Of a stretch of 64,000 nucleotides of DNA, positions 58,174 through 59,876 are shown piece after piece. The stretch lies in NCBI RefSeq assembly GCF_055900595.2, contig NZ_CM148325.1, one strand, 5' to 3'. A model generated the notes under the pieces. The model made no database searches and was not told where the DNA came from. It worked only from the letters and a program-made list of their open reading frames with translations. The position numbers were made by a program, and so were the translations under genes. Position 1 is the first letter of the stretch. The number at the start of each line of letters is the position of its first letter.

Positions 58174-59874
58174 TTATTCAACCTCTTTGCAGATATCCTG
58201 AGTTAATCGCCGCATAATATCTTTCCTTAACAAAAACTTTTGTATTTTACCTGATGCAGTACGCGGTAATTTCTCTGTTACCACAATATGTTCAGGATAT
58301 TTATATTTTGCTACCCGTTTACGGCTAAAAAAAGCCACTATGTCTTCCAGCGATATTGAATGATGTGGCGCTTTAAGCACGACATAAGCGCATGAACGTT
58401 CACCTAAGCGTTCATCGGGCATTGCCACAACACAAGCATCATGAATTTTAGGATGCTGTAATAAAATATCTTCCACTTCACGACTGCTAATATTTTCCCC
58501 GCCGCGGACAATAATATCTTTCTTGCGCCCGGTTATTTTTATATAGCCAGCTTCATCCATTCGGCAGAGATCGCCGCTGTAATACCAGCCTTCTTCATCC
58601 AGCGCACGGGCGGTTAATTCAGGTTCATCAAAATAACCCATAAACACATTGGGACCACGCGAAGCCTCTTCACCTACACAACCAGGCGGTAAGGTCTTGC
58701 GTGCATCATCGACCACTTTAATCTCTACGCCTGCGGCAGCGTAACCATCGGTGTTCATAAAGCGCGACAAAGGATCGTCGAGATTTACCACCGCATGCGG
58801 CGAACTTTCTGTGGAACCATAAACACTTAATAATTTAATGCCGCGTTGTTGGCATTCACGCGCCACCTTTTTGGGGATCGTGGTGCCGCCGCAAAGAAAG
58901 AAGCGCAGCGCTGAAAGGTCTGCGGGCTGTTTCTCCAGTAAATTCAAAAGGTCATAGACAAACGGTGTTGCGCCGAGCATACAGGTGCAACGCTGCTGCT
59001 CAAGCAGCGCGAGACACGCATCAGGAGTGAAAATATCTAACAACACGCTGCGAGCACCAATCAAAAAAGGTGCTGTTACGCCATGCAGAAAGCCCGTTGC
59101 GTGACCAAGTGGCGCAGGCATCATAAAGACATCCTGCCAGGTCAGATTCAGCCGCGCGCAATAAGCCCGCTCACTGGCGAGAATATTGTTATGCGTTAGC
59201 ATCACGCCCTTTGGCAGACCCTCGGTTCCGGAGGTAAATAGCACAGCGGCTAATTCATCGCCGTGGGTCGTTATCGCCGTAGTCAGTGGGGTATTGTCGG
59301 CGAGAATCTGACTTAATGAGAGGGAAGAGGTGGCGGGAGCCAGTTTGTCCACGCCGACAATTTGTTGTAGTTGTGGAAGCTGATTTTGCAGCGGCAGGAT
59401 TAAATCTACCGGACGCGTTTGTTTAAACAACGTCGGTGCAAAGAACATTTTTGCCTGACACTTATTGAGTACCCACACCAGTTCTGCTTCCCGCCAGGAA
59501 GGTAACAGCGGCACGGAAACCGCACCGGTTTTCAGGCAGGCAAGATAGATAACGGTAAATTCACACCAGCCTGGCAGTTGAAATGCGATGCGATCGCCTG
59601 ATTCAATACCCTTCGCCAGCATCCAGTTTGCCAGACAGCTCGCGGCATGATCGAGCGCGCTATAGGTGTACGATGCACCATGATTATCGACCACGGCAAT
59701 TTTATCTGGCATCGAACGAGCGGTCTGCTGCCAGTAATCGGCCAGCGAAGCATCGCCCCATAATCCTTGCTGACGATACGCCGCACGACGTTGTTCGTTG
59801 AACGTTAATGTCACTTTCATTTTGGACTCTCGAAACAGAACATCAGGCCCGAGATGCGGGCCTGTGGGATGCAT
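58174..59874 (-). CDS. fadK: short-chain acyl-CoA synthetase
   Basis: AMP-binding TSGTEGLPKGV; longest ORF 566 aa; an internal ATG at 59818..59820 (MKVTLTF, 548 aa) has a better RBS. Confidence 0.85.
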   Translation of the reverse strand: MHPTGPHLGPDVLFRESKMKVTLTFNEQRRAAYRQQGLWGDASLADYWQQTARSMPDKIAVVDNHGASYTYSALDHAASCLANWMLAKGIESGDRIAFQLPGWCEFTVIYLACLKTGAVSVPLLPSWREAELVWVLNKCQAKMFFAPTLFKQTRPVDLILPLQNQLPQLQQIVGVDKLAPATSSLSLSQILADNTPLTTAITTHGDELAAVLFTSGTEGLPKGVMLTHNNILASERAYCARLNLTWQDVFMMPAPLGHATGFLHGVTAPFLIGARSVLLDIFTPDACLALLEQQRCTCMLGATPFVYDLLNLLEKQPADLSALRFFLCGGTTIPKKVARECQQRGIKLLSVYGSTESSPHAVVNLDDPLSRFMNTDGYAAAGVEIKVVDDARKTLPPGCVGEEASRGPNVFMGYFDEPELTARALDEEGWYYSGDLCRMDEAGYIKITGRKKDIIVRGGENISSREVEDILLQHPKIHDACVVAMPDERLGERSCAYVVLKAPHHSISLEDIVAFFSRKRVAKYKYPEHIVVTEKLPRTASGKIQKFLLRKDIMRRLTQDICKEVE

Positions 59875-59876
59875 GA

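Follow-up and report, generated by a model that had tools for sequence, protein, structure and literature searches.

The window, by which we mean the whole 64-kb stretch of DNA that was analysed, is E. coli chromosome, and the genes concerned here all lie on its minus strand. A 301-nt query was 100% identical to the sequence of strain Z0117EC0005 and 97.7% identical to K-12. At the junction of ydiT and fadK, two in-frame ATG codons are candidates for the fadK start, and a hairpin lies between them. The features of the junction, in window coordinates, are as follows:

59877..60170, minus strand: ydiT coding sequence, a 97-aa ferredoxin-family protein (open reading frame list and translation, and the RefSeq annotation of the identical sequence in Z0117EC0005)
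59879-59877, minus strand: ydiT stop codon TAA, followed by 'TC' and then ATG
59872..59874, minus strand: upstream in-frame ATG, 2 nt past the ydiT stop, which opens the longest fadK frame
58174..59874, minus strand: longest fadK open reading frame, 566 aa
59821..59876, minus strand: ydiT-fadK intercistronic spacer, 56 nt, read here as untranslated; annotated as intergenic in PGAP genomes
59844..59864, minus strand: stem-loop CAGGCCCG-CAUCU-CGGGCCUG (5' arm 59864-59857, loop 59856-59852, 3' arm 59851-59844)
59833..59843, minus strand: interrupted U-rich tail AUGUUCUGUUU on the 3' side of the stem, a marginal terminator tail matched by a terminator-like scan
59827..59831, minus strand: SD-like GAGAG, 6 nt ahead of the downstream ATG
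59820-59818, minus strand: downstream in-frame ATG, which gives the 548-aa form, 18 codons shorter
58174..59820, minus strand: fadK coding sequence from the conserved start, 548 aa, a medium-chain fatty-acid-CoA ligase (NF004758, tblastn, PGAP)

This layout bears out much of the original prediction, namely that the longest fadK frame opens 2 nt past the ydiT stop (TAA at 59879-59877, 'TC', ATG at 59874), that an internal ATG at 59820 is preceded by a GAGAG ribosome-binding site (59831-59827, with a 6-nt gap), and that the choice of start alters the protein by 18 residues (566 versus 548 aa). The hairpin, which had been given on the plus strand as AGGCCCGagatgCGGGCCT at 59845-59863, is real and gains one extra C-G pair, so that it spans 59844-59864.

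The start had been described as ambiguous, and this description stands insofar as there are two candidate ATGs on which public annotations disagree; the comparative data, by contrast, favour the downstream ATG alone. The curated record of MG1655 (NC_000913.3) places fadK at 1782977..1784677, encoding 566 aa (NP_416216.5), and the exact 566-aa K-12 sequence carries a UniRef name with the RepID FADK_ECOLI. In every PGAP genome sampled, on the other hand, fadK is the 548-aa form, leaving the 56-nt spacer, while GenBank submissions contain both lengths. In an even sample of 60 E. coli genomes, drawn from 5372 matches, the 45 nt that span the upstream ATG and the hairpin were free of annotated features (60 of 60). 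The NCBIfam equivalog NF004758, a profile of 548 positions with a curated cut-off of 736 bits, assigns the protein to the FadK family with 1078.8 bits, and its positions 1-547 match residues 19-565 of the long frame. The N-terminus of the 548-aa form thus coincides with profile position 1, and the 18-residue extension falls outside the model. Solved structures of the ANL family mostly align from about residue 22-30 onward, the earliest from residue 11, and the extension is without a counterpart in the protein family. Full-text literature searches on fadK found nothing concerning its N-terminus.

Related genomes were compared in a tblastn scan with one genome per species, which returned 23 loci; in 20 of these, the first matched residue is residue 1 of the short form. 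The 20 loci come from Escherichia, Citrobacter, Kosakonia and relatives, and all of them keep the short-form ATG together with the N-terminus M-(K/S)-(V/I)-T-(L/I)-T-F-(N/D). This conserved ATG is preceded by a purine-rich SD-like motif, which reads GAGAG in Escherichia, GGGAA in Citrobacter, and GAGAAGAG or AGGAAGAG in Kosakonia. Upstream of the SD region, the spacers range from 56 to 241 nt and are unalignable or loosely alignable across genera. Of the 15 non-Escherichia loci analysed, 10 have their reading frame interrupted by a stop 1-8 codons ahead of the conserved ATG, and 12 lack any in-frame start ahead of it.

The upstream codon itself varies within Escherichia. Across 5426 complete E. 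coli genomes, the 30-mer spanning the site was found in its ATG version in 5132 and in an ACG version in 229. The codon is also ACG in Escherichia sp. E1V33, in E. whittamii and in strain SCPM-O-B-8794. In the E. coli strain w264, in E1V33 and in E. whittamii, no further in-frame start exists upstream, and the only one in SCPM-O-B-8794 is a TTG located 6 codons before the conserved ATG. By parsimony, we infer that ACG is the ancestral state and ATG a derived transition. Two starts both conserved among orthologues, the pattern by which a dual-isoform gene would be recognized, were not found, as the upstream ATG is restricted to a subset of E. coli.

Substitutions in the 18 codons that separate the two starts are close to neutral. 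In comparisons with the window, their pN/pS was 0.35-0.70 in four cases and undefined in a fifth, values that rest on small counts of 3-6 changes per comparison; fadK proper, by comparison, has 0.06-0.10 and ydiT has 0.02-0.11. If the long frame were translated, E. coli polymorphisms would include loss of the start, a K-to-N change in K-12 (AAA to AAC), and an F-to-S change (UUU to UCU) in strains C1, 300444 and caps25a. Exact matches numbered 4912 for the 30-mer of the hairpin versus 4314 for the 45-mer, and from this difference probably several hundred genomes carry the UCU type.

Some further variation was seen around the locus. The w264 haplotype is a mosaic, in which fadK differs from K-12 by 1.5-1.8%, and the spacer differs by 1 nt from that of E1V33 and by 4 nt from that of K-12. 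Such a pattern points either to recombination with breakpoints close to the spacer or to a long-standing polymorphism. Between the window strain and K-12, synonymous divergence in fadK is 0.18, which is high for two E. coli strains, and the 3' two-thirds of the gene are more diverged than the 5' third. Of the 5374 places that match the ydiT-fadK junction in E. coli, 2 are on plasmids and not on chromosomes.

Computed initiation energies separate the two sites as well. The upstream ATG (59874) has no obvious ribosome-binding site, as originally predicted, its best anti-SD duplex being −1.7 kcal/mol, and opening the region from −20 to +15 costs 17.5 kcal/mol because the 5' arm of the hairpin begins at +11. 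For the downstream ATG (59820), the best duplex is −3.0 kcal/mol, which is itself weak, and opening the same interval costs 6.4 kcal/mol. De novo 30S initiation is therefore predicted to favour the downstream site, and on these energies the upstream ATG could be reached only through reinitiation by ribosomes that terminate at ydiT, 2 nt away.

Such reinitiation is the basis of the main alternative, in which most E. coli do make the 566-aa form: after terminating at the ydiT stop, ribosomes would reinitiate 2 nt further on and translate through the hairpin, producing the long form alone or together with the 548-aa form. An ATG placed 2 nt after the TAA does suit termination-reinitiation, for which an SD is not needed, although this geometry is permissive only. 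The frame is open in the 5132 genomes counted above, MG1655 is curated at 566 aa, and the SD of the downstream start is weak. Further, ydiS and ydiT overlap by 4 nt, and coupling is therefore used elsewhere in the operon. However, the start required by this alternative is missing from 229 E. coli genomes and from three other Escherichia lineages with no substitute nearby, the extension has no counterpart in Citrobacter, Kosakonia or the family profile, its codons change at a nearly neutral pace, and the site combines the lack of an SD with a −14.7 kcal/mol hairpin from +11. We consider it decidedly unlikely that the long form is made in this way.

A more specific version, which we regard as improbable, is that FadK of the main E. 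coli lineage recently acquired a de novo 18-residue extension through a single ACG-to-ATG transition, and that this extension is translated by reinitiation from ydiT with the hairpin melted in passing. If this were true, most E. coli would make a lineage-specific long isoform coupled to ydiT, alone or with the short one, and the E. coli that have ACG (229 genomes of the sample) would, like the sister lineages in Escherichia, make short FadK only. The predicted tryptic peptide specific to the long form is (M)HPTGPHLGPDVLFR, and that of the short-form N-terminus is MK/VTLTFNEQR.

Judging from sequence conservation, the fadK start is very probably the downstream ATG at 59820. The original prediction had left the choice between the two starts open, and this no longer holds, as the comparative data give a clear signal at one ATG only, the very outcome that had been named beforehand as refuting it. 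The hairpin had been seen as lying between two alternative starts; with the downstream start in use, the hairpin is therefore intercistronic rather than within fadK, and we place it in the 56-nt untranslated ydiT-fadK spacer. We hypothesize that fadK is translated from ATG 59820 by way of the weak GAGAG 6 nt upstream, yielding a 548-aa enzyme, and that the 56 nt from the ydiT stop to this ATG would constitute an untranslated spacer of the ydiQRST-fadK cluster. The upstream ATG probably arose when ACG changed to ATG, by a recent transition within the main lineage of E. coli, which by chance would have opened the frame back to 2 nt past the ydiT stop. As a whole, this explanation, a downstream fadK start combined with an untranslated spacer that contains an intercistronic hairpin, appears likely to us.

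The answer to the start-site question is already in use: RefSeq/PGAP and NCBIfam take the conserved start, and the curated K-12 record is still long. It follows the familiar pattern of longest-ORF over-extension in bacterial annotation, in that the longest fadK frame opens at an unconserved ATG without an SD, a conserved and family-consistent start is located 18 codons downstream, and curated and automated annotations differ. The K-12 reference record (NC_000913.3 / NP_416216.5) thus probably carries 18 spurious N-terminal residues, and the Swiss-Prot entry FADK_ECOLI apparently does likewise. Unlike most over-extensions, however, the spurious start of fadK is just 2 nt from the stop of the upstream gene, and at this distance low-level reinitiation is conceivable.

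The stem-loop in the spacer, CAGGCCCG-CAUCU-CGGGCCUG, has 8 bp, of which 7 are G-C pairs, a 5-nt loop and a folding energy of −14.7 kcal/mol. Its pattern is unique in the 64-kb window and occurred in none of 100 shuffles. Of 200 dinucleotide shuffles of the 62-nt spacer, 197 folded less well than the spacer itself (z = −2.28). An extended lower stem, GCAUC/GAUGU, was also considered and rejected; it is broken in the GAC lineages and does not covary with the ATG/ACG site. None of the 16 stem positions differs among six Escherichia haplotypes, but three of the five in the loop do (CAUCU, CACAU, CACGU, CUCGU). In Escherichia, 8 of the 56 sites in the spacer are variable, all of them outside the stem, although the probability of this arrangement (P = 0.054) is marginal. 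The only stem polymorphism found in E. coli, in strain MS1494, converts the closing G-C pair to G-U, so that pairing is kept. Divergence of the whole spacer is 2-3 fold slower than that of third codon positions nearby, but with P = 0.015-0.32 this is again marginal, the divergence is not clearly lower in three of the five comparisons, and we claim no strong constraint.

Hairpins of different sequence occupy the equivalent place in other genera. Citrobacter spacers contain REP-like CCGGAU...AUCCGG hairpins whose inner stem covaries (GGCC/GGCC versus ACAG/CUGU), and three of the four aligned Kosakonia-type spacers have a hairpin of the AAGGACA(UC) type, followed by a C/U-rich tail. In K. oryziphila, the 3' arm of the hairpin is lost. 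A scan of 59600-60100 against Rfam (E ≤ 10) returned no family, the one match, to ES003, being a chance match at 12.6 bits versus a gathering score of 37.

These observations bear on whether the hairpin does anything. Even with the downstream start in use, it might be a functionless feature of the spacer, either a neutral GC-rich palindrome or a relic, conserved through the closeness of the lineages. Such a reading would account for the borderline invariance of the stem, for spacer divergence that mostly does not fall clearly below that of third positions, for the hairpin-less K. oryziphila and for the absence of an Rfam match. It fits less well with the fact that three genera each carry a differing hairpin at the equivalent place, with the covariation in Citrobacter, with the preserved pairing in MS1494, and with a spacer that folds better than nearly all of its shuffles. 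We therefore think that a hairpin without function is unlikely, though it deserves some weight.

Another possibility concerns the translation of fadK itself. The fadK SD (CGAGAGUC) can pair with GAUUUUCG at the 3' end of ydiT, and fadK might then be translated only once ydiT ribosomes melt this helix. An 8-bp outer helix of this kind is present exactly in the minimum free energy structure of the 111-nt context. However, the fold of that context is unexceptional and does not stand out from shuffles (z = −1.5). In w264, E1V33 and E. whittamii, a change of UUU to UUC disrupts the helix and no compensating change restores it, and the computed probability that the SD is unpaired is 0.64. This long-range sequestering helix, being unconserved and no better than shuffles, was rejected as very improbable.

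The hairpin might alternatively be a copy of a dispersed repeat, either of the REP/BIME type or another small mobile palindrome. The orthologous spacers of Citrobacter lend this some plausibility, as they carry REP-like GCCGGAT...ATCCGGC palindromes, with full REP copies in two of them. The E. coli hairpin, by contrast, is unlike the REP consensus, matches no Rfam family, is found as a single copy in the window, and occurs, in the median, at one place in each E. coli genome. It thus shows neither the multiple copies nor the consensus by which REP/BIME members are recognized, and a repeat or mobile element origin, to which we attach almost no weight, was rejected on its uniqueness in the window and its single copy per genome.

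Several of the orthologous junctions hold unusual DNA. The full REP-type palindromes (…CTTATCCGGCCTGCAA…) are in the spacers of Citrobacter sp. HRGM_Genome_0066 and C. amalonaticus. A soil metagenome-assembled genome (MAG) has a 241-nt ydiT-fadK spacer with several hairpins. In Escherichia sp. MOD1-EC7003 (positions 1-116 of locus L008), the end of an IS66-family element, rather than ydiT, lies upstream of AUCAUGCAU. This end is about 90% identical to ISCro1-type copies and terminates in ...GCTTACA, the contig stops there, and the insertion point is the junction of the ydiT stop and the fadK spacer. Judging by these sequences, structured or repeat DNA seems to have landed repeatedly in the gap between ydiT and fadK.

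Within the same operon, the 55-nt ydiR-ydiS spacer (61457-61511) contains an 8-bp hairpin, UCCCGCUG-UAAAUG-CAGCGGGA, at 61471-61492 on the minus strand, which directly abuts the ydiS SD (AGGGAG), and this spacer folds with −21 kcal/mol (z = −3.5). The operon thus seems to be characterized by structured spacers.

As to what the ydiT-fadK hairpin may do, a comparison with intrinsic terminators and leaky attenuators is suggested by its GC-rich stem-loop (8 bp with 7 G-C pairs and a 5-nt loop) and by the T-containing tail that follows. The tail AUGUUCUGUUU has 5 T in its best 8-nt window and just passes a simple terminator pattern scan, in which such matches were not enriched (2 found, 2.1 expected from shuffles). 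It differs from the tail of a typical terminator, however, in being interrupted, in being weaker in many strains (for example, ..UGUCU.. in C1, 300444 and caps25a), and in lacking conservation across genera, as it is not U-rich in Citrobacter or Kosakonia. It is also weaker than the AUUUAUUUUAUUU in which the canonical terminator after fadK ends. That second structure, in the convergent fadK/ppsA spacer (58112-58149) past the fadK stop, is a terminator-like hairpin CCCGGCG...CGCCGCCGGGG followed by AUUUAUUUUAUUU. Its T-run overlaps the 3' end of the convergent ppsA, and it is therefore probably a bidirectional terminator.

The Term-seq supplement of PMC7815308 lists no sense-strand 3' end for ydiT or fadK, and the operon was probably silent in the conditions used. 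The sole entry there is an antisense 3' end within fadK (MG1655 1784357, minus strand), which probably reflects read-through or processing of the convergent ppsA transcript. A search for a sigma-70-like promoter in the spacer found none; the nearest match is within ydiT (60145-60118), and such matches were not enriched over shuffles.

Alternatively, the hairpin may be compared with other intercistronic stem-loops. It is GC-rich, lies in a spacer of about 56 nt between co-oriented genes, begins 12 nt past the ydiT stop, and has positional equivalents in related genera, which are REP-like in Citrobacter. At this distance from the stop, a terminating ribosome therefore probably need not unwind it. 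Intercistronic stem-loops set differential mRNA levels in polycistronic operons, as the REP hairpins of malE-malF do. The E. coli ydiT-fadK hairpin differs from those REP hairpins in being single-copy and not REP-like. We tentatively propose, with somewhat less than even confidence, that it is an intercistronic RNA hairpin acting as a leaky intrinsic terminator, as a barrier to 3'-exonucleases, or as both, and that it would thereby lower fadK mRNA relative to ydiQRST.

The start-site question is a textbook case of over-extension, and the value of settling it is mostly housekeeping. The choice of start matters for FadK expression constructs and tags and for proteomics search databases. It also affects genome-recoding designs that handle the 54 nt as coding sequence instead of a structured 5' leader. 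Synonymous recoding in Ec_Syn57 reportedly created a promoter that altered ydiT-fadK expression (bioRxiv 10.1101/2024.06.16.599206). This accidental 'on' state of a normally silent locus could be a source of data on both the start site and read-through. The hairpin itself is nothing unusual, one more unannotated intercistronic stem-loop in the poorly understood and mostly silent ydiQRST-fadK operon, and it could help explain why the expression of fadK differs from that of the upstream genes.
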